NCBI GenBank assembly: GCA_016202435.1 | Contig: JACQOR010000089.1 | Location: forward strand, 1-62,568 | From: Chloroflexota bacterium | GTDB taxonomy: Bacteria; Chloroflexota; UBA6077; SHYK01 | Reading direction: 5' to 3' | DNA: 62,568 bases | Shown here: one piece after another, positions 15,132 through 62,568 of the stretch | Layout: every line of letters begins with the position of its first letter | How positions within the stretch are numbered: position 1 is the stretch's first letter | Notes under the pieces: model-generated | What the model was told of the DNA's origin: nothing | Databases searched by the model: none | The model's input: only the letters and a program-made list of their open reading frames with translations | Made by a program: the position numbers and the translations under genes

Positions 15132-15673
15132 AATGCGACCGTCCCTTCCGCCTGGACAATCCGCTCCAAATCAAGTCGTCGCGCGTGGCAGAGCGCGATC
15201 GCAAGCGCGTCGGCCGCGTCATCCGGCGAAGGAACCTGGGCCAAATTCAACATGAGGCGCACCATCTCCTGTACCTGGCGCTTCTTTGCTGCACCGGACC
15301 CCGTCACTGATTCCTTCACCGCGGTGGGCGCATATTCGTAGAAGCCGCTTCCGGTTGCCACAACCGACAGGACCGCCACCCCCCGAGCCTCACCGATGCC
15401 ACGCGCCGTGAGGCGGCGGGTATAGTACAGCGACTCCATCGCCACGTCCGTCACCGCGTAACGTTCCCGAAGAACGGTCAGCTGATCGAAGATCGTCCGG
15501 AGGCGATCCGGAAGCGAGGCTGTTGGCCGGGTGAGCACACACCCGTGGTCAAGGTGCTCGGGACCGCGGTCGGAAACCGCCACCAGCCCGTAGCCGAGGG
15601 TTGCCAGCCCAGGGTCGATTCCGAGAATGATTCGGTTAGGGGGCTGCGCGGCTTCGCCAGACTCGGGTTTCAC
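15128..15673 (-). CDS. ruvC: Crossover junction endodeoxyribonuclease RuvC
   Basis: ILGIDPG, E, 'YAPTAVKESVTGSGAAKK', 'DDAADALAIALCH'. Confidence 0.95.
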   Translation of the reverse strand: MKPESGEAAQPPNRIILGIDPGLATLGYGLVAVSDRGPEHLDHGCVLTRPTASLPDRLRTIFDQLTVLRERYAVTDVAMESLYYTRRLTARGIGEARGVAVLSVVATGSGFYEYAPTAVKESVTGSGAAKKRQVQEMVRLMLNLAQVPSPDDAADALAIALCHARRLDLERIVQAEGTVAF

Positions 15674-16422
15674 ACTCCCGCGTATGCTGCCACGGCCTCG
15701 TCTGAGATCTCGATGTTCGTGTAGACCTTCTGGACATCGTCCATATCCTCAAGCCTTTCCATGAGACGGAGGATCGAGACGGTACGATCTGCGTCCAGCG
15801 CAACAGTCGCCCTCGGAACCATGGCCACCTCAGCCGCGGTGATTTCCAGCTGTGAATCCACCAGTGCTGTGCGCACGTCATCTAGCTCGGCTGGATCCGT
15901 GTAAACCTCGATCACCCCCCCCTCTGTGCGCACATCCGTGGCACCAGCGTCGATCGCTCGAAGGCCGATCTCATCCGGATCCACTCCCGGAGCCTCGATC
16001 GTGAGTACACCCCGCTGCTCAAAAAGCCAGGCCACCGCGCCGGATTCCGCGAGACTGCCGCCCGCGCGAGTGAAGGCGCTCCGAACTTCTGCCACGGCAC
16101 GTTTCCGGTTGTCCGTCAGCACCTCGATAAGGAGAGCAGCGCCTCCGGGTCCGTACCCCTCGTAGACGATCTCGTCGAGGTTTCCCTCAGCTGCGGATCC
16201 GGCCGCGCGCTTGATTGCCCGTTCAATTGTATCGATAGGCATGTTGGCCAGCCGAGCCCGGTCAATGGCCAGACGCAGACGCGGGTTCACCTCGGGATTC
16301 GGGCCTCCGGCTCGCACGGCTACTGCGATCTCACGGCCAAGCTTGGTGAACATTTGCCCGCGCTTGGCGTCGGCTACGCCCTTTTGGCGTTTGATCTGTG
16401 ACCATTTGGAGTGTCCGGACAT
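15670..16422 (-). CDS. yebC: YebC/PmpR family protein
   Basis: MSGHSKW, YEGYGPGG, TDNRKR, DDVQKVYTN. Confidence 0.96.
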   Translation of the reverse strand: MSGHSKWSQIKRQKGVADAKRGQMFTKLGREIAVAVRAGGPNPEVNPRLRLAIDRARLANMPIDTIERAIKRAAGSAAEGNLDEIVYEGYGPGGAALLIEVLTDNRKRAVAEVRSAFTRAGGSLAESGAVAWLFEQRGVLTIEAPGVDPDEIGLRAIDAGATDVRTEGGVIEVYTDPAELDDVRTALVDSQLEITAAEVAMVPRATVALDADRTVSILRLMERLEDMDDVQKVYTNIEISDEAVAAYAGV

Positions 16423-16458
16423 CGGCACCAGCTCCCGTCAGAGGCGCCGGAAATTCTA

Positions 16459-44914: not shown

Positions 44915-46657
44915 TCAGTTCTTATCCAGATCGTGCCACCAATCCTGGTCGGTTCCCCACTTATAGACGCCGGTCGTTCCTTTGGACACCACCCAGGGGA
45001 TCGGCTCGTAGTAGAACGGCCAGAACGCCACCTCCCCCATGATCTTGTCCAGGAACTGCCTGCCGAGGGCCCTCATATCGGTGTCCAGCACCGCCATCTC
45101 GGTCCGCTCGATCAACCGGTCCATCTCCGGTTCGTTGTACCGGCCCCGGTTGTTGCCTCCGGTCCAGTTGTTGGCTTCCGTCGCAACCTGCGACCCATGG
45201 AACCGTCGGTTCCCGATCTTCGGCCCCGCCGTGATGTTAGATGCTCCCGTCTTCAACGAGATGAACTTGTTGTCGTTCTGCTCGGAGGCGGTGAGCACGT
45301 GGATCTGCAGGTTGATCCCCACCGCCTTCAGGTCCTGCTGGATGATCGAGTTCAGCTTCTCCCAGTCCGTACCCCGCCGGATCTGCACCTGGTAGTCAAA
45401 CCGCTCCCCGCTGGGCTGGTGCACCCGCACCCCGTCCGGGCCCATCATCCAGCCCGCTTGCTCCAGCAGCTGCACCGCCTTCCGCTGGTCGTACGGGTAG
45501 ATGTAGGGGAAGTCCGGCGCCTCGATCCAGTCCTTCAGCAGCATGTAGGGCTCATCGGTGGGAGCGTCGTTGACCCGCGCCGCCTTGAGCTGCCCCAGCG
45601 TCATGATGTTGGCCAGCTCCTCCCGATTGATCGCGATCAGCCCGGCCTGCCGCACTAACGGATTGACGAAATTGATCGGACGCGCATAGGTCAGGTCGCG
45701 CTGCAGCTCGTACTGGTTGGTCCCGTCCCGCTGACCGATGATCACCTCGTGCCCGGTCCCCTCTCGCTGGAACCGGTTGCGGAGTTCTTCGGCCAGCTCC
45801 ATCCCGATTGCCGGCGGCAGCAGCACGTCCGCCGCTCCGGCCAGGAACGTCGCCGTCATCGTATTGGGGTCGAAGACCGTCCTCAGGATGATCCGGTGGA
45901 CCTTCGCCGGCCCCATGTAGTATTCGTCAAATCGCCGGAACTCGACGTGCGACGCCGGCTCGAAGTTCACCAGCTTGAACGGCCCCGCCCCCACGTACTT
46001 GCTCGAGTTCAAATCGGAGAACTGCAGCTGGCTCGGGTCCTGCAGGTAGAGCGGCTCCCACAGGTGCTTCGGGAGCGGCGTCAGCCCCTCCCCGTTCCGA
46101 CCCAGGATCGAGAGCCGATTCCAGTGGGTCGTGAACGTGTACGGGTCCTGCACCGTGATGTTCGAGATGTACTGGATTCCGCCCCCCAGCGTTTGCTGCT
46201 TCACCGCAGGATCGTTCTTGATCTTGACCGTGAAGGCGATGTCTTCGGCGGTGAGCGGCGTGCCGTCGTGCCACTTGGCGCTGGGCACGATCTTCCAGGT
46301 CATGTCCATCGTGCCGTCCGGCTTGATGACCCACTTCCCGTTCTGCTGCGTCGGGATCTCGGCCGCCAGGCGGCGCTCCTGAGGTCCGCCCGGAATGCGG
46401 TTCGGCGCCGTCAACGGCTCCTCGGAGAACCCGGTCCAGTGCCGCCACGCCGCGCTCCCCTGCGCGCCGCTGATCACCTCGTCGAAGGTGGCAATCTCTC
46501 GCGCAATGAGGATGGTGACGATCTTCTCTTTCTCCGGCTCTCCGGAAATCCCCGGGGCCCCCGGAGTCGTCGGGGCTTGGCCCGGAGCGCACGCTGTCAG
46601 CACCAGAAACCCGATCATCCCTATCGACATCGACAGACGCAAATGCTTCCGCTGCAT
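44915..46657 (-). CDS. ABC family-5 solute-binding lipoprotein, paralog 1
   Basis: Lipobox LTAC, 'A.WHDG.PLTAEDI.FT', 'VGAGPFKL', 'RQAGLIAINR'. Confidence 0.92.
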   Translation of the reverse strand: MQRKHLRLSMSIGMIGFLVLTACAPGQAPTTPGAPGISGEPEKEKIVTILIAREIATFDEVISGAQGSAAWRHWTGFSEEPLTAPNRIPGGPQERRLAAEIPTQQNGKWVIKPDGTMDMTWKIVPSAKWHDGTPLTAEDIAFTVKIKNDPAVKQQTLGGGIQYISNITVQDPYTFTTHWNRLSILGRNGEGLTPLPKHLWEPLYLQDPSQLQFSDLNSSKYVGAGPFKLVNFEPASHVEFRRFDEYYMGPAKVHRIILRTVFDPNTMTATFLAGAADVLLPPAIGMELAEELRNRFQREGTGHEVIIGQRDGTNQYELQRDLTYARPINFVNPLVRQAGLIAINREELANIMTLGQLKAARVNDAPTDEPYMLLKDWIEAPDFPYIYPYDQRKAVQLLEQAGWMMGPDGVRVHQPSGERFDYQVQIRRGTDWEKLNSIIQQDLKAVGINLQIHVLTASEQNDNKFISLKTGASNITAGPKIGNRRFHGSQVATEANNWTGGNNRGRYNEPEMDRLIERTEMAVLDTDMRALGRQFLDKIMGEVAFWPFYYEPIPWVVSKGTTGVYKWGTDQDWWHDLDKN

Positions 46658-49617: not shown

Positions 49618-49667
49618 CTTGACGGATGCTACATCAGAATCGGGCCCGGAATCCGGAGGAGGGTGAA

Positions 49668-50420
49668 ATGCCGCTCTACGGACCCCTCATGGGCGAGACG
49701 ACAGGGATCCACGGCCACAATGCGGACCTGATCGACGCGTACTTAGCACGGCCTCTCGGCGATGGCCCCTACCCGGGAGTACTCCTCCTACACCACATGC
49801 CGGGCTGGGATGAGTGGAGCATCGAGGCGACCCGATACTTCGCCCACCACGGCTATATCGCGATCTGCCCGAACCTGCACCATCGAGCCGGCCCTGGCAC
49901 CGCAGATGAGATGGCAGCGGCGACCCGAGAGCGAGGCGGCGTACCCGACGAACAGTGCATGGGCGACGCGGCCGGCGCTGTTGCCTATCTGCGCGCCATG
50001 CCGTCAAACAACGGCAAGGTCGGCGTGATCGGATTCTGCTCAGGTGGGCGCCAGGCCTACCTCGCTGCCTGCGAGCTCCACGGTGTTGACGCCGCCGTCG
50101 ACTGTTGGGGCGGCCGCGTCTACGTTCCAGAGGAAGAGCGCCAGGGGCGAGGGCAGCCGCTGGATCTCACTCCCAAAATGCACGTCCCGCTGCTCGGAAT
50201 CTTCGGGAACGACGACACCAACCCGTCGCCCGAACACGTTGACCGCATCGAGGCAGCTTTGAAGGACGCCGGCAAGCCCTATGAGTTTCACCGCTATGAC
50301 GGGGCCGGCCATGGATTCTTTGCGACCGGCCGCCCGGGCTACCGCCCGGTGCAGGCCACCGACGGCTGGAAAAAGGTCTTCTCCTGGTTCGAGACGTACC
50401 TCCAGCCAGCCAGAACGTAA
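49668..50420 (+). CDS. Dienelactone hydrolase family protein
   Basis: GFCSGG nucleophile, FG.DD.NP, YDGAGHGF; GGAGG RBS. Confidence 0.92.
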   Translation: MPLYGPLMGETTGIHGHNADLIDAYLARPLGDGPYPGVLLLHHMPGWDEWSIEATRYFAHHGYIAICPNLHHRAGPGTADEMAAATRERGGVPDEQCMGDAAGAVAYLRAMPSNNGKVGVIGFCSGGRQAYLAACELHGVDAAVDCWGGRVYVPEEERQGRGQPLDLTPKMHVPLLGIFGNDDTNPSPEHVDRIEAALKDAGKPYEFHRYDGAGHGFFATGRPGYRPVQATDGWKKVFSWFETYLQPART

Positions 50421-50442
50421 GAAGGGAAGGGAGCTCGAAGCT

Positions 50443-50754
50443 ATGTGCACGTGGATCCTTCACCGCGCAGATATCCGAGGCAGTGGCAAGGGACAGGCCG
50501 GCTGGTTCCCTATTCAGCAGGCGAACGTCGCTTTCGACCACCCCGCCGATGCGCCCCTCGACCACGCGGTCCTCATTGACTTCGTGAACGAGGCGATGGG
50601 CCCCAGCGCGAGGGTCGCCGTCGAGCTGAGCGCCACCTCGGCACGGGCGTTGGTCGAGGCGATTCAGAGCGCGCTCGAGGACGGCGACAAGCAGCACGTC
50701 GCCAACCATGAGGATGTCGTGACGTTGTCCGTCCATTCGACGTACTTGAACTGA
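50443..50754 (+). CDS. Small conserved protein resembling DUF6295
   Basis: 'MCT.I...GSGKG..GWF', 'DHP..APLDHA..IDF', 'RVAVELS..SAR.L'. Confidence 0.7.
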   Translation: MCTWILHRADIRGSGKGQAGWFPIQQANVAFDHPADAPLDHAVLIDFVNEAMGPSARVAVELSATSARALVEAIQSALEDGDKQHVANHEDVVTLSVHSTYLN

Positions 50755-51085
50755 CGGCCGTAGTGTCTCCGCGGGAAGTTATGGATCCGTGGCTCTCGGG
50801 GGCCCGAGGTCCTCTCCTTCACACATCGTGGCCGACAAGGGCGGGCTCCGGATTGGGAGCGAGCCTTCCTACTTCCGACTCGATTTGGCCCGCAGACTTC
50901 GGCAGCATTCCCTGGAAGTTTAGGGCACCCCTGCCGGGGAAACCCCGCAAAAAGTCAGGGTTCCGCTGAGGGATTCCCCTATTAACTTTTCCGGTGCCCA
51001 GAAGGTCTCTGGCCAACGCAACCGACCAGATTGCTGCCATGGCCGGGACAAATGAGTATTCGTCTTGCCACGCAAAGGGGGATCA

Positions 51086-51406
51086 ATGGGAATCCATGCC
51101 GTCAATCAGCGCGATGTCGAGGCGGAGAAGACTAACCGGGGTTATACGAAGTTCTTGCACATGCAGGCGGGCGACCCACAGATCATGATTCGTATCTGGG
51201 GCACCGAGTCCGGGCACGGGGTCAACAGCCACCCGTTCAACCAGATGTTCTATGTGCTCGAGGGTGAGATAGAGATGGGGGACGCGATCTACACCTCTGG
51301 GACGTGCATCTTCATGCCGAAAGACACCGACTACGGCCCCATCAAGGTACCCAAGGCGGCCAAAATCCTCCGCTACGCAGAGCACGACACCAGTCGGGAT
51401 GCGTAG
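51086..51406 (+). CDS. Cupin-domain protein
   Basis: 'HGVNSHPFNQMFYVLEGEI', 'GTCIFMPKDTDYGP'. Confidence 0.8.
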   Translation: MGIHAVNQRDVEAEKTNRGYTKFLHMQAGDPQIMIRIWGTESGHGVNSHPFNQMFYVLEGEIEMGDAIYTSGTCIFMPKDTDYGPIKVPKAAKILRYAEHDTSRDA

Positions 51407-51417
51407 CCTCGACCAGG

Positions 51418-52926
51418 CTACGGCTCCCCTCGCAGCGGCGGCGTGGCGCCTGGCGGCCTCCGATATCCCGTTGCCTGCTCATAAGCATACGCGAGCTTGA
51501 TCATGAGACCCTCGCTATAGGGCCGGCCCATAAAGGTGATCCCCACCGGAAGGTCGTCGGTGGTGAAGCCCGCGGGAACTGAGATCGCCGGAACGTAGAC
51601 CAGGTACGTGTTGAGCTGAGTGGCCCCCTTGCCGCTCGCTCCCGCAGTGATGAGCGTGGGCTGGTGCTCCACGGTCTTGTGGACGATGGCGTCGAGGTTG
51701 TGATCCGCCATGACCTTGGCGATATTGATCGTCAGCTCTTCGCGGGCGGCAAGATACTCTGGATAGCCGGGTGGGTGTCCCGGCGGCCGTCCCTCGGGGC
51801 TGGCGGCGCCTCGAGCCCCGCGCACCTTGCTGTAGTCTGGGGATCGCAGCATCTCCTCCCGCGACTTGAACGGCGGGTTCCCACCTCTAGCGAAGTACAC
51901 GTCGAACGCCGCGTGGTCGTCGACTCCGCTTCGCTTGGCCAGCAGCGGAAGCAGATTGGGGATGACGATGGGATCGATGATCGTAGCGCCGGCATCCGTG
52001 AGCTCTTCAACTGCTCGATCGAAGACCGCGGCGACCTTCGCAAAATCCTCCGAGTCCGGCTCGGAGTTGCGCGCCATGGTTTCCCGCAGGACACCGATAC
52101 GAGCCCCCTTTAGCCCGTCAGCGTCGAGATACGCGGCGTAGGAGGGAGGAACGTGGCCGACTCCGAGCGCCGTGATGGGGTCCTCCGGGTCGTAGCCCAC
52201 CATCACCTCCAGCAGCAAGGCCGCATCGCGGACGGTCCTGGTCAGGGGGCCGAGCGACCCATTGGTCGTGGGCCACCCAGCGTACACGCCGCCGCGGCTC
52301 ACCAGTCCCGCCGTGGGCCGCATGCCCACGATCCCATTCCATGCCGCAGGTCGTCGGATGGAGGCGACGCCTTCCTGCCCGATGGCAACAGCAGCCAGGT
52401 TTGCCGAGACCGCCGCGCCCGGTCCTCCGGACGACCCTCCCACCGTGCGCTGGGGATCGAACGGGTTGCGCGTCGAGCCGAACAATGAGCCGTGGGTGTC
52501 GCCGCCGCCCAACTCTCCCAGCGTCGCCTTGGCCAGGATGATCGCCCCCGCCCGCCTGAGTCGCTCTACGACGAACGAATCCCTGGCGGGGAAGTAGTTC
52601 CGGAACAGTACCGAGCCAAGGGTCGTAGGCGTTCCCACCGCATCGATCTGATCTTTCAGCACGATCGGGACGCCGTGCAGGGGGCCGACCGGTCCCGACG
52701 ACCTCAGCGCCTCATCCAGCCGCTCCGCCTGGGTCAAGGCGTCGGGAGCAATGGTGATGATCGAGTTGATATGGGACCCGCCGCGGTCGTAGGCCTCGAT
52801 GCGATCGAGATAGAGCTGCGTCAACTGGCGCGCCGACGCGATCCGCGTGCCGTATGCCCGCTGAATGTCGTCGATGGTGGCTTCCAACAGGTGAAAGGTG
52901 TCAACTCCGCTCGCCGACTGCGTCAC
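51418..52926 (-). CDS. Amidase-signature family protein, paralog A
   Basis: GPLHGVPIVLKD, GGSSGG, variant GQEGVASIRRPA. Confidence 0.92.
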   Translation of the reverse strand: MTQSASGVDTFHLLEATIDDIQRAYGTRIASARQLTQLYLDRIEAYDRGGSHINSIITIAPDALTQAERLDEALRSSGPVGPLHGVPIVLKDQIDAVGTPTTLGSVLFRNYFPARDSFVVERLRRAGAIILAKATLGELGGGDTHGSLFGSTRNPFDPQRTVGGSSGGPGAAVSANLAAVAIGQEGVASIRRPAAWNGIVGMRPTAGLVSRGGVYAGWPTTNGSLGPLTRTVRDAALLLEVMVGYDPEDPITALGVGHVPPSYAAYLDADGLKGARIGVLRETMARNSEPDSEDFAKVAAVFDRAVEELTDAGATIIDPIVIPNLLPLLAKRSGVDDHAAFDVYFARGGNPPFKSREEMLRSPDYSKVRGARGAASPEGRPPGHPPGYPEYLAAREELTINIAKVMADHNLDAIVHKTVEHQPTLITAGASGKGATQLNTYLVYVPAISVPAGFTTDDLPVGITFMGRPYSEGLMIKLAYAYEQATGYRRPPGATPPLRGEP

Positions 52927-53055
52927 TCGTGGCCCCCAATCTCATTGACGTGCAGCACTGTGAATTTCCGTCGCCCGCTTTTCAGCCGATGGGACCACAA
53001 CCTCGTGGTGAGCCGAGGACAGACGGCCACCGGTTTGGTTGCGAGCCCTGCGCGC

Positions 53056-54567
53056 TTACGGCTCGCCCGGCAGCGGCGGCACCGTGCTGGGCGGCTTCCG
53101 ATGCCCCGTGGCCTGCTCGTATGCGTAGGCCAGCCTGATCATCGTGTCATCGCTGTAGGCTCGGCCCAAGAACGTGATGCCCACCGGGAGCCCGTCGGCC
53201 GTGAAACCCGCGGGCACGGAGATCGACGGGACGTAGACTAGATAGGTATTGAGGTGCGTCGCGCCCTTCTGGTTCGAATAGGGCGGGTTGACTCCCTCTC
53301 TGATCAACGTCGGCTGGTGCTCCACGGTCTTGTGGACGATGGCGTCGAGGTTGTGGTCCGCCATGACCTTGGCGATGTTGATGGTCAGCTCTTCCCGGGC
53401 GGCGAGGTACTCCGGATACGTCGCCCCGCCGCCGATTGGCGTCCCGCCACCCCGCTGTCGAAACACCTTCGAATAGTCGGGTGCCGCGAGCATTTCCTCC
53501 CGCGACTGGAACGGCGGATTTCCACCCCGTCCGTAGTACACGTCAAAAGCCTCTTCCTCGCCGGAGTTGCTTCGCTTTGCGAGCAGGCGAACCAGGTCCG
53601 GAATGACGATGGGATCGACAACCGTAGCCCCAGCATCTTCGAGCTCGCTGACGGCCTGATCGAACACCCGGGTCCCGTTCGTGAAATCCTCGGAGTCGGG
53701 TTCCGAGTTGCGCCCCATCGGCTCGCGCAAGATGCCGATTCGGGCTCCCTTAAGGCCGTCCGCAGCCAGTGCCGCCGAATACGGGACGGGAACGCGACCC
53801 ACCCCCAGCGCGGTGGCGGGATCCTCCGGATCGTAGCCCACCATGACCTCCAGGAGCACCGCCAGATCTCGGACGGTCCTGGCCATGGGGCCGAGCGATC
53901 CGTTCAGCATCGGCCAGCCATGGTACACGCCGGCTCGGCTGACCAGCCCCTGCGTGGGCCGCATGCCGACAACAGAATTCCATGCCGCTGGCCGACGGAT
54001 GGAGGCAAACCCCTCCTGCCCAATCCCAACCGTTCCAAAGTTGGCCGCCATCGCGGCTCCCGGACCTCCGGAGGACCCGCCGACGGTCCGCTCCAGGTCG
54101 TAGGGGTTCTTCGTCGAGCCAAATAGAGACCCGTGAGTATCGCCCCCGCCCAGCTCGCCGAGCGTCGCTTTGGCCAGGATGATCGCGCCCGCCTTCCGCA
54201 GCTTCTCTACCGCGAACGCGTCTCGGCTGGGGAAGTAGTCTTTGAACAGCACCGAGCCAAGAGTCGTGGGCGTTCCCACTGCGTCGATCTGGTCCTTCAG
54301 AATCACGGGAACGCCGTGCAGTGGCCCCACCGGACGAGGGGTCCGCAGCGCCTCGTCCGCCCGCTCGGCCTCGCTCAGCGCTTCCGGGTTGACCGTGATG
54401 ATCGAGTTGATCTTGGGACCGGCCTGATCATAGGCCGCGATGCGATCCAGATAGAGCTGCGTCAGCTCTCGGGCGGACACGACCCGGGCCGCGTACGCCG
54501 CCTGGATATCATCGATGGTAGCTTCCAACAGGCGAAACGTCCTCGCTTCACTCGGGGACTGCGTCAT
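53056..54567 (-). CDS. Amidase-signature family protein, paralog B
   Basis: GPLHGVPVILKD, GGSSGG, variant GQEGFASIRRPA; GAGGAGG RBS. Confidence 0.92.
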   Translation of the reverse strand: MTQSPSEARTFRLLEATIDDIQAAYAARVVSARELTQLYLDRIAAYDQAGPKINSIITVNPEALSEAERADEALRTPRPVGPLHGVPVILKDQIDAVGTPTTLGSVLFKDYFPSRDAFAVEKLRKAGAIILAKATLGELGGGDTHGSLFGSTKNPYDLERTVGGSSGGPGAAMAANFGTVGIGQEGFASIRRPAAWNSVVGMRPTQGLVSRAGVYHGWPMLNGSLGPMARTVRDLAVLLEVMVGYDPEDPATALGVGRVPVPYSAALAADGLKGARIGILREPMGRNSEPDSEDFTNGTRVFDQAVSELEDAGATVVDPIVIPDLVRLLAKRSNSGEEEAFDVYYGRGGNPPFQSREEMLAAPDYSKVFRQRGGGTPIGGGATYPEYLAAREELTINIAKVMADHNLDAIVHKTVEHQPTLIREGVNPPYSNQKGATHLNTYLVYVPSISVPAGFTADGLPVGITFLGRAYSDDTMIRLAYAYEQATGHRKPPSTVPPLPGEP

Positions 54568-54596
54568 TTGTCCTCCTCTTTTCGAGCCGACCCCGA

Positions 54597-54640
54597 CCGG
54601 CACCCATGTTAGCGCCTCGCCGCTGCCAATGCGCAAAGCA
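54597..54640 (-). promoter_or_regulatory. Cassette-type promoter for amidase B
   Basis: GGCGAGGCGC-TAACAT-GGGTGCC, homologous to the UbiD promoter. Confidence 0.55.
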
Positions 54641-54670
54641 CGGGGCCCGGGAACAATCTCCCGGGCCCCG
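54641..54670 (-). terminator. Hairpin downstream of SBP paralog 2
   Basis: CGGGGCCCGGGA-6 nt-TCCCGGGCCCCG. Confidence 0.7.
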
Positions 54671-54746
54671 GCAGCTGCCAGGTACCCTCAGTTCGCCTCT
54701 CCCGCCACATCAGGAGAGGGACACTTCGACTGAGGTTCAGCGAAGC

Positions 54747-56465
54747 TTAATTCTTATCCAGCTCCCACCACCACCCCTGATTGCCTCCGGCCGGGAAGAC
54801 TCCGGTCACTCCCTTCACCATCATCCAGGGGATGGGCTCATAGTAGAACGGCCAGAATGCCACCTCCCCCATGATCCGGTCCAGGAACTGCCTGCCGAGA
54901 TCCCGGAGCTCGGTATCGAGGACCGCCTTCTCGGTGGCCTCGATCAGCCGGTCCATGGCTGGGTCGTTGTAGCGACCTCGGTTGTTGCCGCCGGTCCAGT
55001 TGTTCGCCTCGGTCGCGATGTTGGAGGAGTGGAACCGCCGGGCGCCGATCTTGGGTCCGGCGGTCACGTTCGTCGCTCCGGTCTTGGTTGAGACGAACTT
55101 GTTGTCGTTCTCCTCGGTAGCGGTGAACACATGAAGCTGCAGGTTGATCCCAACTGCCTTGAGGTCCTGCTGAATGATCGAGTTCTGTTTCAGGAAGGCG
55201 GTGCCGGGGCGGATCTGTACCTCGTAGTCGAATCGCTCCCCGCTCGGCTGGTGCACCCGAACCCCGTCCGGACCGGGCATCCACCCCGCCTGCTCCAGCA
55301 GCTGTACCGCTTTTCGCGGGTCATACGGGTAAATGTAGGGGAAATCCGGCGCCTCGATCCAGTCCTTCAGCAGCTTGTAGTAGTCATCCGTGGGATGGTC
55401 GTTGACCCTCGCCGCCTTGCCCTGCCCGAGCGTCATTTCCGCCGCCAGCTCCTCGCGGTTGATGGCGATGAGCCCGGCCTGCCGCACCAGCGGGTTGACG
55501 AAATTGACCGGACGGGCGTACGTCAGGTCCCGCTGGAGCTCATACTGGTTGGCGCCAGTCCGCTGTCCCACCATCACCTGAGCCCCCCGCCCGCCGAGCT
55601 CCGCAGCCTCCTCCATACCGATGGCAGGCGGAAGCAGCACGTCGGCGGCGCCGGCCAGCAGATTGGCGGCCATTGCGTTGGCATCGTAGATCGTCTTCAA
55701 GAAGACGCGGTGGACCTTGGCCGGCCCCTTGTAGTACTCGTCGAACCGCCGAAACTCGATGTACTGGGCCGGCTCGTAGGACGCGAGCTTGAACGGCCCG
55801 GCCCCGACGTAGTCGCGCGAGTTCAGCGTAGAGTACTGGAGTTGGCTCGGGTCCTCCTTGTAGACCGGTTCCCACAGGTGCTTCGGCAGCGGATCAAGGC
55901 CGGTGCCATTCCGGCCCAGGGTCGAGGGCTGCTTCCAGTGGGTCGTAAACGTGTACGGGTCCAGTACGGTGACGTCGGAGATGTACTGAATCCCGCCCCC
56001 GAGAGTTTGCCGCTTCACGGCGGGGTCATTCCGCAGCCTGACCGTGAACGCGATGTCCTCGGCGGTGACCGGAGTGCCATCGTGCCACCGGGCGTTTGGC
56101 ACGATCTTCCAGGTCATGTCCATCGTGCCGTCTGGACGAATCACCCACTTCCCGTTTTGTTGAGTGGGAATCTCAGCCGCCAGGCGTAGCTCCTCAGGTC
56201 CACCCGGAACGCGATTGGCTACCGTCAGCGGCTCATGAGCAAACTCGACCCAGTGCCGCCAGGCAGCATTGCCCTGAGCGCCGCTGATGACCTCGTCAAA
56301 AGTGGTCATCTCGCGATTCATGACGACCGTGACGGTCTTCTCTTTCTCAGGAGCCGCCACTCTGCCGGTAGTCTCCCCGATTTGGGCCGGCTGGCCCGGC
56401 GCACACGCTGTCAAGACGACGAGTCCGAGCGTCAAGACCGATAGGATCGAGTGTTTCCGCTGCAT
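54747..56465 (-). CDS. ABC family-5 solute-binding lipoprotein, paralog 2
   Basis: Lipobox LTAC; closely similar to paralog 1 throughout. Confidence 0.92.
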   Translation of the reverse strand: MQRKHSILSVLTLGLVVLTACAPGQPAQIGETTGRVAAPEKEKTVTVVMNREMTTFDEVISGAQGNAAWRHWVEFAHEPLTVANRVPGGPEELRLAAEIPTQQNGKWVIRPDGTMDMTWKIVPNARWHDGTPVTAEDIAFTVRLRNDPAVKRQTLGGGIQYISDVTVLDPYTFTTHWKQPSTLGRNGTGLDPLPKHLWEPVYKEDPSQLQYSTLNSRDYVGAGPFKLASYEPAQYIEFRRFDEYYKGPAKVHRVFLKTIYDANAMAANLLAGAADVLLPPAIGMEEAAELGGRGAQVMVGQRTGANQYELQRDLTYARPVNFVNPLVRQAGLIAINREELAAEMTLGQGKAARVNDHPTDDYYKLLKDWIEAPDFPYIYPYDPRKAVQLLEQAGWMPGPDGVRVHQPSGERFDYEVQIRPGTAFLKQNSIIQQDLKAVGINLQLHVFTATEENDNKFVSTKTGATNVTAGPKIGARRFHSSNIATEANNWTGGNNRGRYNDPAMDRLIEATEKAVLDTELRDLGRQFLDRIMGEVAFWPFYYEPIPWMMVKGVTGVFPAGGNQGWWWELDKN

Positions 56466-56529
56466 TGCAGCCTCCCTGGGGCAGTTCTGCGGTCGCACGG
56501 CTATCCGCAAAGCTCATGTGCCCGTTTTT

Positions 56530-56575
56530 CAGGCACTCATCTTACTCCGTCTGCTTTACCAAACGCTCAAACGAG
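56530..56575 (-). promoter_or_regulatory. Cassette-type promoter for SBP paralog 2
   Basis: GGAG-TAAGAT-GAGTGCCTG. Confidence 0.55.
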
Positions 56576-56612
56576 AATGAGAGCCCGGAGGCGATCCCTC
56601 CGGGCCCTCATT
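56576..56612 (-). terminator. Hairpin downstream of SBP paralog 3
   Basis: AATGA..GCCCGGAGG / CCTCCGGGC..TCATT. Confidence 0.7.
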
Positions 56613-56631
56613 CTGGACACTGGCTGGAACG

Positions 56632-58428
56632 TCAGGTCTTGTCCCAGTACCAGATGTTGCCGGTCGAGTAGCCCGCCTCGCCCGGGCCCGTCACCCCCTT
56701 CAGCATCAGGATCGGCAAGGGCTCCCAGTAGAACGGGTGGTAGACCACGAGCGAGCCCGCGTAGTCGATATACCCTTTGTACGCTGCCTTCAGCTGCTGC
56801 TCGTCGACTGTGACCTCGATCTTCTCGATGAGGCGATCCGTCTCCGGGCTATACCAGCGGCCCCGGTTGTTCCCACCGATCCAGTTGTTCGCCTCGGACG
56901 CCAGCCCCGAAGAGTGCAATCGCCGGCCCTTGGCTCCGGAGGTGATCATAGCCGCGCCCGGCTTCTGACCAATGAACCGCTGATCCAGCTGCTCTGTCTG
57001 CGTGAGGACGTGCACGTCCAAATCCACCCCGACCGCCTTCCAGTACTGCTGGATGATCACCCCCACCTTGAAGGGCCCGCTGCCCTGGCGGACCAGCGCC
57101 TGGTACGTGAACCGCTCTTCGCCCGCGGCCGGCAGGTCGTAGGGAAAACTGCCGGTCGGACTACTGGCTGTCGGTCCACTGGCTGGATGCACCAGGATGC
57201 CATCAGGGCCCCTGGTCCAGCCGGCGGACGTCAGCAGCTCCTGGGCCTTGCGTGGATCGTAGGGGTATCTCCAGGGGTAGGTCGGCGACTCGACGTACTC
57301 CTTGATGTACGGGTAATTCTCGTCGTCGTTCGGAGACCAGAAGCTCGTCGCGATCTTTGAGTATCCCTGGGTCATGAGCTGCGTCAGCTCCTGTCGATCG
57401 ATGGCCTGGAGGAGCGCCTGCCGCACCGGTTGCTGGGTCATCCCGTAGACCGGTTTGGCAAACATCGGGTCCACCATCAGCTCGAAATTGAGCGCGTCCA
57501 GCCGATCCCCCATCACCAGCCGGTGTCCGCTTCCCTCCTTCGTCCAGCGCTCCTGCAGCTCCAGGGCCAGCTCCAGCTCGATCCCCTGAGGCAGCACCAC
57601 GTCGACCGCTTCCGCCAGGAGGTTGGCCGCCATCGTGTTCGCGTCGGGAACGATCCGCATGGTGACGCGGTCCAGTTTGGCCGGCCCCTTGTGGTACTCG
57701 TCGAAGCGATCGAAGGTCATGTGCGACCCCACGAGCCATTCGGTCAGCTTGAACGGCCCGGCGCCGATGAACTCGTCGAAGAAGTACCGCAGCTCCCCCA
57801 TGGTGGACTTGTTGGGGCCCAGGTACGCCGACTCCAGGATGTGCTTGGGCAGAGGATTGAGTCCGCCGCCCGCGGCGCCCAGGTTGGTCGTGGTTTTCCA
57901 GTGGGTCACGAACGTGTAGGGGTCCGGCGCTTCGACGCTCGTCACGTACTCTACGCCGCTACCCTTGAGACCCTGTTTCGCGACCTCTTTGTCCGTCCGT
58001 ACCGTGTAGGCGAACACGAAGTCCGCGCTCGTGACCGGAGCGCCGTCATGCCACTTGGCGTTCCGCACCAGCTTCCAGGTCATGTCCATCCTGCCGTCCG
58101 GGTATACCGCCCAGGTCCCCTTGGTCGTGCTGGGCAGCTCAGCCGCCAGCCGCAGGTCGCGGACGCCGTTGATGACCGGCCCGGTCAGGCCCTCATCCGC
58201 GATGGGCTTGCCGTGCAGATAGGCGGCGCCGCCGGCCGCTCCGCTGACGACGTCATCGAAACTGGCCTGATCCCGCTGCTGGACGAAGATGAGGGTTTTT
58301 TTTGCAGCCGGTGCCCCGGCGGCAGCTTGTTCCGCGCGCCCAGCCGCGGGCTGACTTGGCGCGCACGCACTCACAAGCAACAATCCGATCATCATCACAA
58401 CTGACAAACTCGTGTACTTTCGCTGCAT
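56632..58428 (-). CDS. ABC family-5 solute-binding lipoprotein, paralog 3
   Basis: Lipobox VSAC; WHDGAPVTSADF, IGAGPFKL, RQALLQAIDR. Confidence 0.92.
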   Translation of the reverse strand: MQRKYTSLSVVMMIGLLLVSACAPSQPAAGRAEQAAAGAPAAKKTLIFVQQRDQASFDDVVSGAAGGAAYLHGKPIADEGLTGPVINGVRDLRLAAELPSTTKGTWAVYPDGRMDMTWKLVRNAKWHDGAPVTSADFVFAYTVRTDKEVAKQGLKGSGVEYVTSVEAPDPYTFVTHWKTTTNLGAAGGGLNPLPKHILESAYLGPNKSTMGELRYFFDEFIGAGPFKLTEWLVGSHMTFDRFDEYHKGPAKLDRVTMRIVPDANTMAANLLAEAVDVVLPQGIELELALELQERWTKEGSGHRLVMGDRLDALNFELMVDPMFAKPVYGMTQQPVRQALLQAIDRQELTQLMTQGYSKIATSFWSPNDDENYPYIKEYVESPTYPWRYPYDPRKAQELLTSAGWTRGPDGILVHPASGPTASSPTGSFPYDLPAAGEERFTYQALVRQGSGPFKVGVIIQQYWKAVGVDLDVHVLTQTEQLDQRFIGQKPGAAMITSGAKGRRLHSSGLASEANNWIGGNNRGRWYSPETDRLIEKIEVTVDEQQLKAAYKGYIDYAGSLVVYHPFYWEPLPILMLKGVTGPGEAGYSTGNIWYWDKT

Positions 58429-58585
58429 CGCTACTCCCTTCTGGAAGAAGGACACCGGGTCGAGACGACCCGCGAATGGCGAAACTCCGACGTTCAGCTG
58501 GTCACTGATCGAAAACGGCTCCCCTGGCTCCTCCTTGCTCGGGCGTTAGCGCCCGCCTCCACGAGTATGGTCAGGAACTCGACAG
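58429..58585 (-). promoter_or_regulatory. Structured 5' leader of SBP3 (candidate cis-regulatory RNA)
   Basis: Homologous to 62143-62320, with paired substitutions in stems and an SD-sequestering hairpin. Confidence 0.55.
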
Positions 58586-58620
58586 GCGACCATCTTACTC
58601 CGACCGGAAGGCTGCTTCAA
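58583..58620 (-). promoter_or_regulatory. Cassette-type promoter for SBP paralog 3
   Basis: TTGAAG, 17 nt, TAAGAT-GGTCGCCTG. Confidence 0.65.
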
Positions 58621-58625
58621 TAAGT

Positions 58626-58658
58626 GAGGGCCCGATGGAGCGTATCCATCGGGCCCTC
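58626..58658 (-). terminator. Hairpin downstream of the UbiD gene
   Basis: GAGGGCCCGATGGA-5 nt-TCCATCGGGCCCTC. Confidence 0.72.
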
Positions 58659-58687
58659 CTGGTGGCTGCCTAGCGGCTAGATCAGGC

Positions 58688-60169
58688 CTACATCGTGTCG
58701 CCGCGCGCCACGGCGGCCGCTCCTCGCCCGTCGCCGCGCTGGGGCTCCTCCGTAAGATACTCGCCCCACTTGTCCATGATGCGCTTGCGGTAGGCCGGCG
58801 AGACGTCGTTCACCGGATTGAACTGCTCCTTCCAGGCGAACGGCTTGCAAGCGTCGATCAGCACGCATCCCACCGTGAGGCCATGCTCCAGCGGGATCTC
58901 CTCCTGCTCCGGCGTAAACCTCGGGCTGACCGCCGACGCCCAGTTGTTTCGGTAGATGTGAACCGACTCCTGCGGGTCCGTCCGGGAGGTGATCGCCCAG
59001 AAGACGTCTTTGGGGTCGTGGATGTCGACATCCTCGTCGACGATGACCAGGTACTTGGGCGGGCGGTTCCTGAGGCCGGTCATCACAAAGTCGGCGACCC
59101 GCTTGGCGTGCCCGGCGTACATCTGGTGAATTCCCACCACTAGGAACGGGCCGGCGTTGCTGATGCCGACGACGTCGTGGAAACCGGCATCCCTGATCAT
59201 CTTCATCAGCTGGACTTCGTTGCCCGGAAGGTATGAGCCGCGCCCGACCACGCGCTTGTAGGGTGGCTCTCCGCAGATGATCGGATCGTTCCGGTAGTAG
59301 ATGGTATCGATCCGGACCACCGGAGCCGGCACGCTATTGGCGTAGTGTCCCCCCCCTTCTCCGAACATTCCCTCGTTCCGCATCGGCTCATGATCCGGAT
59401 GCATGATGTAGCCTTCGAGCACCATCTCGGAGGACGCGGGGATCGGGATACCGGTCTTGCCTTTGACGACTTGCACCGGCGCGCCTCGCAGGAAACCGCA
59501 CATGTCCAGCTCTGAGACACCCCAGTTCTCGTTCTCCGCGGTCGCGACGAGCAGAGAGGGCTCCTGCCCGAGGGAGAGCACTGTGGGGCAGTCGAGGCCC
59601 TGCTCGAAGTAGTGGTCGCGGATCACCTGCCCGTGATGACCGTGCGCGGTATGCAGTCCCGTGTGGTTCCGGTCGTACACCTGGCTGCGGTACGATCCGA
59701 TGTTCACCCACCCCTCGTAGGGATCCAGCTCGAAACAGGCGCTGGACGTGCCAATGTAAGGACCGGCGTCCAGCTCGTGCCACAGCGGAGCGGGGAACTT
59801 GTACAGATCAACGTCATCCCCTTCCACGACGTTTTCGAGGATCGGGCCCGACGTGACCCATTCGGGCGGAACCGGCTTCTTCTCTTCCAGCCGCTTCGAG
59901 AGGAACGCCTCGAGATCCTTGCCTTCGAGGTCGAGCGGGATATTCGCTGCGAGTCGGCCTCGCTTCTTGGAGGAAAGGACGTTCGTGGCGACACGATGGC
60001 CCTTCGGGTACCCGGGGATCTCGTCAAACAGAAACAGCTTCGCGTTTTGCTTCTCGCCGTTGATCGCGTAGATCCCGCCGATCTCATCCAGAGCAGCACC
60101 ATTGATTTGTTCGAACTCCCCGAGTTCCTGAGCCTTGGCGATGAACTCCCGCAGATCGTCGAACTTCAT
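58688..60169 (-). CDS. UbiD-family (prFMN-dependent) decarboxylase
   Basis: MKFDDLREFI, NIGSYR (Arg), EGMFGE (E-x4-E), 'VIVDEDVD', 'V.WAI.SR.DP', 'IDACKP'. Confidence 0.93.
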   Translation of the reverse strand: MKFDDLREFIAKAQELGEFEQINGAALDEIGGIYAINGEKQNAKLFLFDEIPGYPKGHRVATNVLSSKKRGRLAANIPLDLEGKDLEAFLSKRLEEKKPVPPEWVTSGPILENVVEGDDVDLYKFPAPLWHELDAGPYIGTSSACFELDPYEGWVNIGSYRSQVYDRNHTGLHTAHGHHGQVIRDHYFEQGLDCPTVLSLGQEPSLLVATAENENWGVSELDMCGFLRGAPVQVVKGKTGIPIPASSEMVLEGYIMHPDHEPMRNEGMFGEGGGHYANSVPAPVVRIDTIYYRNDPIICGEPPYKRVVGRGSYLPGNEVQLMKMIRDAGFHDVVGISNAGPFLVVGIHQMYAGHAKRVADFVMTGLRNRPPKYLVIVDEDVDIHDPKDVFWAITSRTDPQESVHIYRNNWASAVSPRFTPEQEEIPLEHGLTVGCVLIDACKPFAWKEQFNPVNDVSPAYRKRIMDKWGEYLTEEPQRGDGRGAAAVARGDTM

Positions 60170-60258
60170 TGCTGGTTCCCCCCTTTTCTTGCTATTGGTT
60201 CGGGACCCTCACTCAAGCGCCGGTCGTTTCTTGCCCACTCGCCCATTCTCGTGACTGA

Positions 60259-60300
60259 CAGGCACCCATCTTACCCCCTCGCCTCAGGAAATTGCACACA
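60259..60300 (-). promoter_or_regulatory. Cassette-type promoter for the UbiD gene
   Basis: GGCGAGGGGG-TAAGAT-GGGTGCCTG. Confidence 0.55.
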
Positions 60301-60306
60301 ATCAAA

Positions 60307-60338
60307 GGAGCCCGATGGAGAGATCTCCATCGGGCTCC
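60307..60338 (-). terminator. Hairpin downstream of SBP paralog 4
   Basis: GGAGCCCGATGGAG-4 nt-CTCCATCGGGCTCC followed by TTTGATTG on the minus strand. Confidence 0.75.
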
Positions 60339-60357
60339 CGCAGTGGCTAGCCTGAAC

Positions 60358-62142
60358 TTAGTTCTTGTCCCACTCCCAGACGTTATTGGTCGCCGTCGAT
60401 CCCGAGAAGACGTTGGGCCCGGTCACCCCCTTCAGCATCAAGACCGGCAGGGGCTCCCAGTAGAACGGATGGTAGACCACCAGTGACCACGCGTGGTCGA
60501 TATACGCCTTGTACGCCGCCTTCAGCTCCTGCTCATTGATCGTGACCTCGATCTTCTCAATGAGGGCGTCCGTCGTTGGGCTGTACCAGCGGCCTCGGTT
60601 GTTGCCACCGATCCAGTTGTTCGCCTCGGTCGCCAGACCGGAGGAGTGCAGCCGACGGCCCTTGGCCCCCGAGGTGACCATCGCCGCGCCCGACTTCCGG
60701 CCGACGAACGCCTGGTCCAGCTGTTCGGACTGGGTGAGGACGTGCACGTCCAGGTCCACCCCAACCGTCTTCCAGTACTGCTGAATGATCACTCCCGTCT
60801 TCAGCGGCCCACTGCCCTGGCGAACCAGAGCCTGATAGTTGAACCGCTCTTCCGCAGCGCTCGGTAGATCGTAGGGGAAGTTGCTCGTCGGTCCGCTGGC
60901 CTGGTGTACCAGGATCCCATCGGCCCCCTTGGTCCAGCCCGCCGACGTCAGCAGCTCCTGGGCCTTGCGCGGATCGTAGGGGTATCTCCAGGGATACGTA
61001 GGTGACGTGACGTAGTCCTTGATGTAGGGCCAGGCCTCATTGTCGGAAGGCCATAGGCTCGTCGCGACCTGCGAATACCCCTGGGTCATGATCTGCATGA
61101 GTTCTTCGCGATCGATAGCCTGCAGCAGGGCCTGCCGCACCGGTTGCTGGGTCATTCCGTAGATCGGTCGGGCGAACAGCGGGTCCACCATGAGCTCGAA
61201 ATTGAGCGCGTCCCCGCGACTCCCGACGATCAGCTGGTGCCCGGTCCCTTCCCGCTGCCAGCGTTCTTTGAGCTCGAGCGCCAGCTCCAGCTCGATGCCC
61301 TGAGGCAGCGCCGCGTCCACTGCCTCCGCCAGGAGATTGGCCGCCATCGTGTTGGCATCAGGAACGATCCGCAGAGTGAGTCGGTCCAGCTTGGCCGGCC
61401 CCTTGTAGTACTCGTCGAAGCGGTCGAACGTCATGTGGGAGCCCACCTGCCAGTCCACCAGCTTGAACGGGCCCGTCCCGACGAACTCGTCGAAGAAATA
61501 ACGAAGCTCGCCCATGGTGGCTTTATTGGGACCCAAATAGGCCGGCTCCAGGATGTGCTTCGGCAGCGGGTGAAGCCCCTCCCCGTAAGCCGGGATGAAG
61601 GTGGTCGTGGGGAAGTGGGCTACGAACGTGTACGGGTCCAGCGTATCGATGCGGGTGATGCGATCCGCTCCGCCGTCCGTATTGCGCTGTTTGGCGACCT
61701 CCTTGTCGCTTCGCACCATCCAGGCAAACTGGAAATCCGCGCTGGTGACGGGCGTGCCGTCATGCCACTTGGCGTTGCGCACGATCTTCCAGGTCAGCTC
61801 CATGCTGCCGTCCGGCTTGACGACCCAGGTGCCTTTCGTGTCACTCGGAAACTCGGCCGCCAGGCGCAGGTCCCGCCCGCGTTCCCCCAACGACATGCTG
61901 AGGCCATCCCACACGACGTTTACGCCGTGCCGATAGGCGGAACCACCGGAGGCTCCGCTCACCACGTCGTCGAAACTGGCCTGGTCCCGCTGCATGACCG
62001 CGATGAGGGTCTTCTTGGCGGCAGGTTGCCCGGGGCCGGCTGCTTCCGAGGGCCTGCTCACGCTCGGGCTCGGCGCGCACGCGCTCACCACCAGGAATCC
62101 GATCATCATCACAGCTGACAGACTCCTGTGCTTTCGCTGCAT
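60358..62142 (-). CDS. ABC family-5 solute-binding lipoprotein, paralog 4
   Basis: Lipobox VSAC; closely similar to paralog 3. Confidence 0.92.
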   Translation of the reverse strand: MQRKHRSLSAVMMIGFLVVSACAPSPSVSRPSEAAGPGQPAAKKTLIAVMQRDQASFDDVVSGASGGSAYRHGVNVVWDGLSMSLGERGRDLRLAAEFPSDTKGTWVVKPDGSMELTWKIVRNAKWHDGTPVTSADFQFAWMVRSDKEVAKQRNTDGGADRITRIDTLDPYTFVAHFPTTTFIPAYGEGLHPLPKHILEPAYLGPNKATMGELRYFFDEFVGTGPFKLVDWQVGSHMTFDRFDEYYKGPAKLDRLTLRIVPDANTMAANLLAEAVDAALPQGIELELALELKERWQREGTGHQLIVGSRGDALNFELMVDPLFARPIYGMTQQPVRQALLQAIDREELMQIMTQGYSQVATSLWPSDNEAWPYIKDYVTSPTYPWRYPYDPRKAQELLTSAGWTKGADGILVHQASGPTSNFPYDLPSAAEERFNYQALVRQGSGPLKTGVIIQQYWKTVGVDLDVHVLTQSEQLDQAFVGRKSGAAMVTSGAKGRRLHSSGLATEANNWIGGNNRGRWYSPTTDALIEKIEVTINEQELKAAYKAYIDHAWSLVVYHPFYWEPLPVLMLKGVTGPNVFSGSTATNNVWEWDKN

Positions 62143-62320
62143 CGCTATCTCCTTCTCGGGGAAGGGACACCGGGCCTAAACGACCCGCGAATTGCGGCAC
62201 TCCGGCGCTTCGAGCTGACCACTCCCGGAAAAGCGAATCTCCTCATTCCCTCCTTACTCGGCGGGTGGCGTCTCCCAGCTCAGCGCTCCGTCCGACGCCA
62301 CGCCGAGGGCACATCGACAG
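62143..62320 (-). promoter_or_regulatory. Structured 5' leader of SBP4 (candidate cis-regulatory RNA)
   Basis: Homologous to the SBP3 leader; long 5' hairpin closed by CTCG/CGAG, then TAAGGAGG. Confidence 0.55.
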
Positions 62321-62360
62321 GGGCCCATCATACTTCGTTTGGCTGGCAAATGCTCGCAGA
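62318..62360 (-). promoter_or_regulatory. Cassette-type promoter for SBP paralog 4
   Basis: GAAG-TATGAT-GGGCCCCTG. Confidence 0.5.
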
Positions 62361-62363
62361 AGT

Positions 62364-62399
62364 GAGAAGCCCGATGGTGAGTTCGCCATCGGGCTTCTC
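62364..62399 (-). terminator. Hairpin downstream of SBP paralog 5
   Basis: GAGAAGCCCGATGG / CCATCGGGCTTCTC. Confidence 0.72.
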
Positions 62400-62423
62400 G
62401 ACTACGCTGCCGCTCGGGTCAGG

Positions 62424-62568
62424 TCAGTTCTTGTCCAGGCCGTGCCACCACTCCTGCTGCCCTCCAGCCGCGTAGACTCCGGTCGTTCCCTTGCTCACGA
62501 CCCAGGGAATCGGCTCGTAGTAGAACGGCCAGAACGCCACCTCCCCCATGATCCGATCCAGGAACTGC
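62424..62568 (-). CDS. 3' end of ABC family-5 solute-binding protein, paralog 5 (truncated by the window)
   Basis: QFLDRIMGEVAFWPFYYEPIPWVVSKG...WWHGLDKN*, matching the C-termini of paralogs 1 and 2. Confidence 0.88.
   Translation of the reverse strand, partial: QFLDRIMGEVAFWPFYYEPIPWVVSKGTTGVYAAGGQQEWWHGLDKN

Follow-up and report, generated by a model that had tools for sequence, protein, structure and literature searches.

A UbiD-family decarboxylase gene among family-5 solute-binding protein genes in an uncultured Chloroflexota: evidence for a mosaic locus and a recurring gene module

What does a cell gain from a stretch of DNA that places a UbiD-family decarboxylase gene among solute-binding protein (SBP) genes, two amidases, a cupin and a lactone hydrolase? 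The stretch lies at 49.6–62.6 kb of a sequence of 62,568 nucleotides (the window), which is contig C65 (JACQOR010000089.1) of a metagenome-assembled genome (MAG) from an uncultured Chloroflexota; the MAG comprises 1.76 Mb in 105 contigs, is 76.65% complete and 0.36% contaminated, and the G+C content of the sequence is 62–66% throughout. An initial annotation had listed these genes within 13 kb, the UbiD being intact, and had proposed an uptake-and-dismantle pathway for aromatic or heteroaromatic amides. Our gene map, built from an open reading frame (ORF) listing together with Pfam and NCBIfam scans, contains every gene on that list. The heteroaromatic part of the proposal gains support, given the PhdA clade of the UbiD and the molybdenum (Mo) hydroxylase and NicX-fold partners found with it, while the path from amidase to UbiD to cupin and lactone hydrolase does not. 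We instead read the stretch, with moderate confidence, as a mosaic of independently transcribed genes from families amplified in this lineage, in which the gene for UbiD and those for three family-5 SBPs (SBP_D, SBP_C and SBP_B) belong to a recurring module.

Taken in the direction of transcription, the minus strand carries a cut SBP gene, SBP_D, UbiD, SBP_C, SBP_B and the amidases Ami2 and Ami1. From the contig end to SBP_B and its hairpin, the features are as follows (SBP5, family-5 SBP; prFMN, prenylated FMN).

62427–62568, minus strand: last 47 residues of another SBP5, of SBP_A/B type, truncated by the end of the contig (tblastn, 85% identical to the C-terminus of SBP_A)
62364–62399, minus strand: terminator-like hairpin following the truncated SBP gene (−36.4 kcal/mol, z = −7.2)
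60358–62142, minus strand: SBP_D, family-5 solute-binding lipoprotein (PF00496, E 1e-57)
60307–60338, minus strand: terminator-like hairpin after SBP_D, with perfect arms of 15 nt and then a U-rich tail (−36 kcal/mol, z = −7.0)
58688–60169, minus strand: UbiD-family prFMN-dependent decarboxylase of the PhdA clade (PF01977 and PF20696)
58626–58658, minus strand: terminator-like hairpin after UbiD, core CCCGATGG...CCATCGGG (−35.5 kcal/mol, z = −5.0)
56632–58455, minus strand: SBP_C, family-5 solute-binding lipoprotein with a lipobox (PF00496, E 1e-57)
56574–56614, minus strand: terminator-like hairpin after SBP_C, with 18-nt arms (−39.5 kcal/mol, z = −6.0)
54747–56510, minus strand: SBP_B, family-5 solute-binding lipoprotein (PF00496, E 2e-49), its likely start near 56465
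54641–54670, minus strand: terminator-like hairpin after SBP_B, with 12-nt perfect arms (−38.5 kcal/mol, z = −4.0)

The hairpins lie 18–77 nt past the stop codons of the five genes, have perfect or near-perfect arms of 12–18 nt, and fold with free energies of −35.5 to −39.5 kcal/mol (z of −4 to −7 against shuffled sequences). Because individual genes are followed by hairpins of their own, lying in gaps of 111–233 nt between the minus-strand genes, we conclude that the stretch is not one operon. Both strands are used, moreover, and the gene order is not conserved in the related genomes G003, G005 and G006. Only the SBP_D hairpin passes the U-tail rule for terminators, and a scan for sigma-70 promoters gave no match. 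The core of the hairpin after UbiD is shared with those at 60307–60338 and 62364–62399 and occurs nowhere else in the assembly, which suggests that the 3′ ends of these genes were duplicated locally along with their terminators.

The UbiD of the window scores 166.5 bits on PF01977 (cut-off 23.3) and 70.2 bits on PF20696 (cut-off 24.2), and its catalytic set appears intact: R161 and the E266-x4-E271 motif are invariant in an alignment of 14 sequences, as is N156, and E220 is nearly so. From a HMMER alignment, we take R161, E266 and E271 to be the equivalents of R173, E277 and E282 of Fdc1. The protein appears PhdA-like by its proximity to the PhdA structure 7PDA (E 3e-93, 316 bits; the runner-up structure scores 119 bits), which makes decarboxylation of phenazine-1-carboxylate a candidate activity. 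The intact UbiD of the initial annotation is borne out, and it falls in the clade of one heteroaromatic-acid decarboxylase, PhdA. Membership of the UbiD family, and a UbiA-family prenyltransferase gene on contig C11, could also be taken to mean that this is a housekeeping decarboxylase of ubiquinone or menaquinone biosynthesis that happens to stand among transport genes. However, the protein falls below every NCBIfam equivalog cut-off tested (VdcC, phenylphosphate carboxylase, SCO4490 and E. coli UbiD), scoring 205 against 244.85 for TIGR00148, 200 against 650 for VdcC and, far short, 150 against 496 for the menaquinone type SCO4490 and 113 against 788 for PRK10922; it is one of six paralogues in its own genome (62–77% identical), with up to 49 copies in relatives, and it belongs to the PhdA clade. 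On these grounds we rejected a role in quinone biosynthesis, which we consider extremely improbable.

As the initial annotation had noted, there is no ubiX in the window. The only copy found in the assembly is on contig C38 (7580–8170; 262 bits on NF004685, cut-off 188), so that prFMN would be supplied in trans. It adjoins ribBA and a HAD/riboflavin-kinase fusion, an arrangement that links prFMN supply to flavin synthesis, and lies within a few kb of genes for a Mo-hydroxylase large subunit (MoCoBD), a NicX-like protein and an MBL-fold hydrolase (C38:1–9600). The absence of a regulator, also noted initially, holds with some qualification: no regulator of a classical catabolic type was seen among the window ORFs scanned, the scan being non-exhaustive, and one YebC/TACO1 protein is encoded at 15670–16428.

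In a FastTree phylogeny of 129 UbiD sequences, the six copies of this genome are monophyletic (support 100), and their sister group consists of copies from G028 and G023 that directly follow CoxM/S/L-like genes. Next outward come loci from an Acidiferrales (L028; UbiD, MoCoBD, MBL, NicX-like) and a Syntrophobacter (L029; UbiD, MoCoBD). This placement divides the amide proposal, in that the PhdA clade favours a heteroaromatic acid as substrate, while the nearest relatives pair with Mo-hydroxylases rather than with amidases and so count against an amide route. As a separate observation, the paralogue at C100:2093–3562 (L024) contains one in-frame TAG, which may reflect a pseudogene, a sequencing error or readthrough.

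We read the genes SBP_D, UbiD, SBP_C and SBP_B as a pared-down version of a module of which the genome has at least six occurrences. Fuller copies combine SBP5 genes, a Mo-hydroxylase large subunit of the xanthine-dehydrogenase family, a NicX/M29-like metalloenzyme, sometimes an MBL-fold hydrolase, and a PhdA-clade UbiD, while the copy in the window retains only SBP5 neighbours beside its UbiD. The copies on other contigs are:

C101: UbiD, NicX-like, MoCoBD and SBP5, co-directional, with gaps of 100, 112 and 42 nt
C70: NicX-like, MoCoBD, UbiD, MoCoBD, then two SBP5
C59: MoCoBD then UbiD, with a 37-nt gap
C100: MBL-fold hydrolase, UbiD, SBP5
C38: MoCoBD, NicX-like, MBL, then UbiX
C37: MoCoBD, two SBP5
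C58: four SBP5, NicX-like

An SBP5 gene lies within 5 kb of four of the six UbiD genes, compared with 6.3% of all ORFs, and this enrichment upholds the link between SBPs and UbiD that the initial annotation had drawn. Similarly, four of the 12 MoCoBD genes have a UbiD gene within 5 kb, against a background of 1.5%. The copy numbers in this genome are strikingly unequal: 32 SBP_bac_5 matches to one OppB/OppC-like permease pair, six UbiD genes to one UbiX, and 12 MoCoBD genes to two 2Fe-2S (Fer2_2) subunits (on C42 and C28) and two FAD subunits (on C10 and C28). Nine of the MoCoBD paralogues (on C59, C70, C101, C37, C43, C97, C34 and C38) are 65–74% identical and have no adjacent 2Fe-2S or FAD genes. 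There are five NicX/M29-like paralogues, an assignment made provisionally from sequence and profile comparison: the sole PDB match is 7CN3 (E 9e-6 with a single sequence, 9e-9 with a profile), covering residues 80–280 with the Fe-ligand region unaligned, and the Atlas neighbours of the protein carry PF26233.

Large UbiD complements are found in relatives of this genome, with 14–36 copies in six of seven sister genera and 24–49 in two further families belonging to its order. Several of the order's remaining families have 0–2, as do the two additional members of the class that were tested. The genome G037, flagged as unpublished, figures in tallies alone and carries none of the claims made here. 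SBP5 matches number 98 in one sister genus and at least 105 in two others, with 24 in G007 and 12 in G021 (Chloroflexota SMAG_U9903, which like G023, Chloroflexota CP_BM_ER_18, is a soil MAG of the same order). First-look SBP_bac_5 candidates numbered 379 in G003 and 200 in G006, where scored matches were at least 105, and the SBP5 copy number of these two may be well above 100 per genome. Among 20 UbiD loci of the sister genera G003 and G006, the partners are SBP5 (12 loci), MoCoBD (5) and UbiX (2), and none of the 20 has an amidase, dienelactone hydrolase (DLH) or cupin. A search for related loci with the single UbiD sequence gave no match; an alignment-based search yielded 80 loci of the PhdA clade, spread over many phyla and none above 40% identity, with MoCoBD at 18, CoA-transferase III at six, UbiX at six, amidase at three, SBP5 at two, DLH at one and cupin at none.

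Besides the SBPs already listed, the window encodes a fifth, outside the stretch as first annotated:

44915–46657, minus strand: SBP_A, family-5 lipoprotein (PF00496, E 3.5e-44)

SBP_A is 75% identical to SBP_B, and SBP_C is 74–76% identical to SBP_D; between SBP_A and the stretch are genes for CinA, a VOC protein and a corrinoid adenosyltransferase. The SBPs have the SBP_bac_5 domain and an export signal, with N-termini reading MQRK...(A/S)C, a lipobox. No BPD_transp_1 match was found in the window, and no cognate permease or ATPase gene adjoins the SBP genes. The only OppB/OppC-like permease pair of the assembly, at C11:3641–5848 (L143), has neither an SBP5 nor an Opp-type ATPase gene beside it, its neighbours being the UbiA-family prenyltransferase and an HlyD/ABC export pair.

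The likely role of the module is the scavenging of N-heteroaromatic carboxylates. We propose that SBP5 lipoproteins would capture these or other aromatic carboxylates and dock on a shared OppBC-type translocator, and that in the cytoplasm Mo-hydroxylase large subunits, working with shared Fe-S and FAD subunits, would hydroxylate the ring next to the nitrogen. The PhdA-clade UbiD would decarboxylate the acid, using prFMN from the single UbiX, and the ring would then be opened or hydrolysed by the NicX/M29-like and MBL-fold enzymes. To such a route the window would contribute only receptors and a decarboxylase. We infer the substrates, the sharing of a permease between receptors and the order of the reactions, and we hold this specific chemistry with less confidence than we do the mosaic and the module. 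A broader idea, which we offer tentatively and consider rather doubtful, is that this Chloroflexota family amplified only the parts that confer specificity (SBP5, UbiD and Mo-hydroxylase large subunits) and kept the shared parts at one or two copies; that SBP5 proteins, classically binders of peptides or nickel, were repurposed for the N-heteroaromatic or polycarboxylated aromatic acids of soil and subsurface organic matter; and that SBP_C/SBP_D and the UbiD of the window form a cognate receptor–enzyme pair.

There remain the amidases and the genes that converge on them, which occupy the other end of the stretch:

53056–54567, minus strand: amidase 2 (Ami2), tandem paralogue of Ami1 (PF01425, E about 1e-86)
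51418–52926, minus strand: amidase 1 (Ami1), amidase-signature family, like the peptide amidase Pam (PF01425, E 5e-87)
51086–51406, plus strand: small putative single-domain cupin of 106 aa, convergent with Ami1 (sub-threshold Pfam match)
50443–50754, plus strand: DUF6295 small protein (PF19812, E 2e-35), absent from the initial annotation
49626–50420, plus strand: cytoplasmic DLH (PF01738, E 6.8e-43)

Ami1 and Ami2 are 74–76% identical and belong to the amidase-signature family by their PF01425 matches and by a catalytic triad in a GGSSGG context; the triad K91/S165/S189 (Lys-cisSer-Ser) and S166 are invariant across six aligned sequences. The 130-nt spacer between Ami2 and Ami1 has no significant structure (fold z = +0.46), so these two genes may share a transcript, the only such pair on the minus strand. 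Where Ami1 and the cupin gene converge, their stops are overlapped by a weaker hairpin.

The nearest solved structure to these amidases is the peptide amidase 5AC3/1M21 (E 1e-67, full length), and the best matches of the SBPs are Opp4A and AppA. Together with an OppB/OppC-like pair as the sole matching permease, these likenesses would fit an explanation in which peptides are scavenged: the SBP5 proteins would be oligopeptide receptors for an Opp importer, the amidases would strip C-terminal amides, and UbiD would be an unrelated neighbour. We think this unlikely. The similarity of the SBPs to peptide binders is remote (82 bits, partial; NCBIfam scores of 91–109 against cut-offs of 650), and SBP5 paralogues stand beside UbiD, Mo-hydroxylase, DLH and Rieske genes, with no peptidase adjoining those examined. 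Furthermore, Pam is periplasmic, whereas no signal peptide was seen at the N-termini of Ami1 and Ami2, and we rejected a periplasmic role of the Pam type for them.

How, then, do the amidases relate to UbiD? Orthologues of Ami1/2 are found in G003 (76% identity) and in G005 (72%), and in neither is there a UbiD within about 10 kb of them. To judge by matching UbiD coordinates, G005, of the same family, is 'Chloroflexi bacterium Dino_bin42' (WHTR01000016.1 being its contig C77), which was described from a fossil-bone metagenome as a new lineage (PMC8067395). The neighbours in G003 are a VOC protein gene (13-nt gap), CobB, MFS transporters, a LigXa-like Rieske oxygenase and SBP5 genes, with a DLH orthologue of 53% identity 8.4 kb from the amidase; those in G005 are a bicupin, a Rieske ring-hydroxylating alpha subunit and SBP genes. 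In the genome under study, contig C42 has a second DLH-like gene immediately ahead of an SBP5 gene, with an amidase fragment some 9 kb away. From these neighbourhoods we conclude that a loose association of amidase, DLH and SBP5 recurs. The amidases with the nearby DLH/DUF6295 and cupin genes would be a separate block, which sister genera keep without UbiD and which probably hydrolyses an imported amide or an amide arising from ring cleavage.

The proposal of the initial annotation can be restated in a form that tolerates separate transcripts: SBPs import a (hetero)aromatic carboxamide, Ami1/2 free the acid for decarboxylation by UbiD, and the processing of the ring falls to the cupin and DLH, all as one regulon. 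All of the genes do lie within 13 kb, a further amidase paralogue, on C59, has its start at a distance of 5.8 kb from the UbiD there, and an amidase is near UbiD in three of the 80 PhdA-clade loci. Operons that join amidase and UbiD do occur elsewhere. One, in a Xanthobacteraceae MAG (L070:7146–21254, JAQGJU010000063.1), is a tight operon of an HpaB-type hydroxylase, an NMT1-type SBP, UbiD, an ABC ATPase, a permease, an amidase and a TPP enzyme; 7 kb away, between orphan TctC receptors, is an Ami1/2 orthologue of 59% identity, and the locus could be regarded as a proteobacterial analogue of the pattern of SBPs with enzymes. Against this stand the strong hairpins between the genes, the placement of DLH, DUF6295 and cupin on the opposite strand, the G003 and G005 orthologues that lack a UbiD neighbour, the 20 UbiD loci of G003 and G006 without amidase, DLH or cupin, and the proximity of amidase to UbiD, which within 5 kb is not significant in the genome itself. 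The notion of one co-transcribed and co-conserved pathway finds no support in these data, and even as a regulon of separate transcripts we regard it as improbable.

The remaining genes of the block need only brief description. DLH, which has the Cys-type nucleophile motif GFCSGG, starts at 49626, the position 49668 given initially being an internal Met. The DUF6295 gene begins 22 nt past its stop, and the two are probably co-transcribed; in G003, the surroundings of the DLH orthologue showed no DUF6295 gene. The assignment of the product of 51086–51406 as a putative cupin comes from profile comparison, in which it scores E 0.002 and 18 bits on Cupin_2, short of the cut-off at 27. A search of 5.8 billion proteins gave just two homologues, 76% and 52% identical to it and both with PF07883; the family is a very rare one. 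Its motif 1 reads S-H-P-F and therefore has a single His there, leaving the two-His metal motif incomplete.

Several points tell against the mosaic and module that we favour. Independent transcription is a prediction from the DNA sequence, and the hairpins, most of which lack U-tracts, could be attenuators or RNA-stability elements. Since the paralogues are not independent and the contigs are short, those rich in paralogues among them, the p-values of the enrichments overstate the case; and with an assembly broken into 105 contigs and 77% complete, the partners counted as single-copy may be underestimated. An M29-type GE..G.N motif is retained in the NicX-like protein, which may therefore be a hydrolase, not a dioxygenase. 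All seven UbiD-linked SBPs fall in one 16-member clade, yet within it they do not group together (6 label changes, where shuffling gives a mean of 6.4), so that co-duplication of SBP and UbiD is unsupported. At the level of whole genomes the two expansions are uncoupled, given that G021 has 38–49 UbiD but 12 SBP5, while G007 has 24 SBP5 and no UbiD. Finally, the third amidase paralogue near the UbiD of C59 leaves room for a loose link between amidase and UbiD.

The individual genes are ordinary members of their families, and the case for an amide-dismantling operon is weak; the useful result is the architecture of the genome. Relatives carry 14–49 UbiD genes, and of four sister genera tested, three reach about 100 SBP5 matches or more. 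The module of UbiD, Mo-hydroxylase, NicX-like protein and SBP5 recurs within the genome, and an Acidobacteriota MAG contains a counterpart of it. In the literature on UbiD expansions we found no account of a repeated module, a many-to-few architecture or a route for N-heterocyclic carboxylates in Chloroflexota. PhdA-clade UbiD enzymes are sought as catalysts of reversible (de)carboxylation, for which this lineage is a natural library of diverged copies, and a matching receptor for each UbiD copy, if there is one, could reveal its substrate. The data also suggest a way in which Chloroflexota of soil and the subsurface might use N-heterocyclic carboxylates.

Four known systems bear comparison with this architecture. 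The first is PhdA/PhdB of Mycolicibacterium fortuitum (7PDA), a phenazine-1-carboxylic acid decarboxylase and its UbiX partner: PhdA is the best full-length structure match to the UbiD of the window, R-E-x4-E is kept, and both would rely on a prenyltransferase of the UbiX type, whereas the window UbiD has no adjacent ubiX, belongs to a set of six paralogues and has SBP5 genes on either side, its nearest relatives standing beside Mo-hydroxylases. The second is the nic pathway of Pseudomonas putida (NicAB, and the 2,5-dihydroxypyridine dioxygenase NicX, 7CN3), which hydroxylates next to the nitrogen and then opens the ring, as the module, with its Mo-hydroxylase large subunit and NicX-fold protein, would do. 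There, however, decarboxylation is carried out by the flavin monooxygenase NicC and here, we propose, by UbiD; the NicX-like protein of the module is also remote (E 9e-9) and may be a hydrolase, and such partners lie outside the window. The third, Pam of Stenotrophomonas maltophilia (1M21, 5AC3), shares with the window amidases the amidase-signature fold and the Lys-cisSer-Ser triad over its full length (E 1e-67), but the window amidases are tandem-duplicated, lack a signal peptide and have neighbours of an aromatic-catabolism type in relatives. The last comparison is with orphan receptors that share a transporter, such as Bug/TctC in Bordetella and MppA, acting via OppBCDF, in E. coli. In both cases many SBP genes have no adjoining permease, here 32 against one pair, with at least 98 SBP5 matches in three of the four sister genera tested. 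The differences are that the Chloroflexota receptors are SBP_bac_5 proteins in the lipoprotein form of a monoderm, and that the many-to-few relation extends to UbiD and UbiX and to the large and small subunits of the Mo-hydroxylases.

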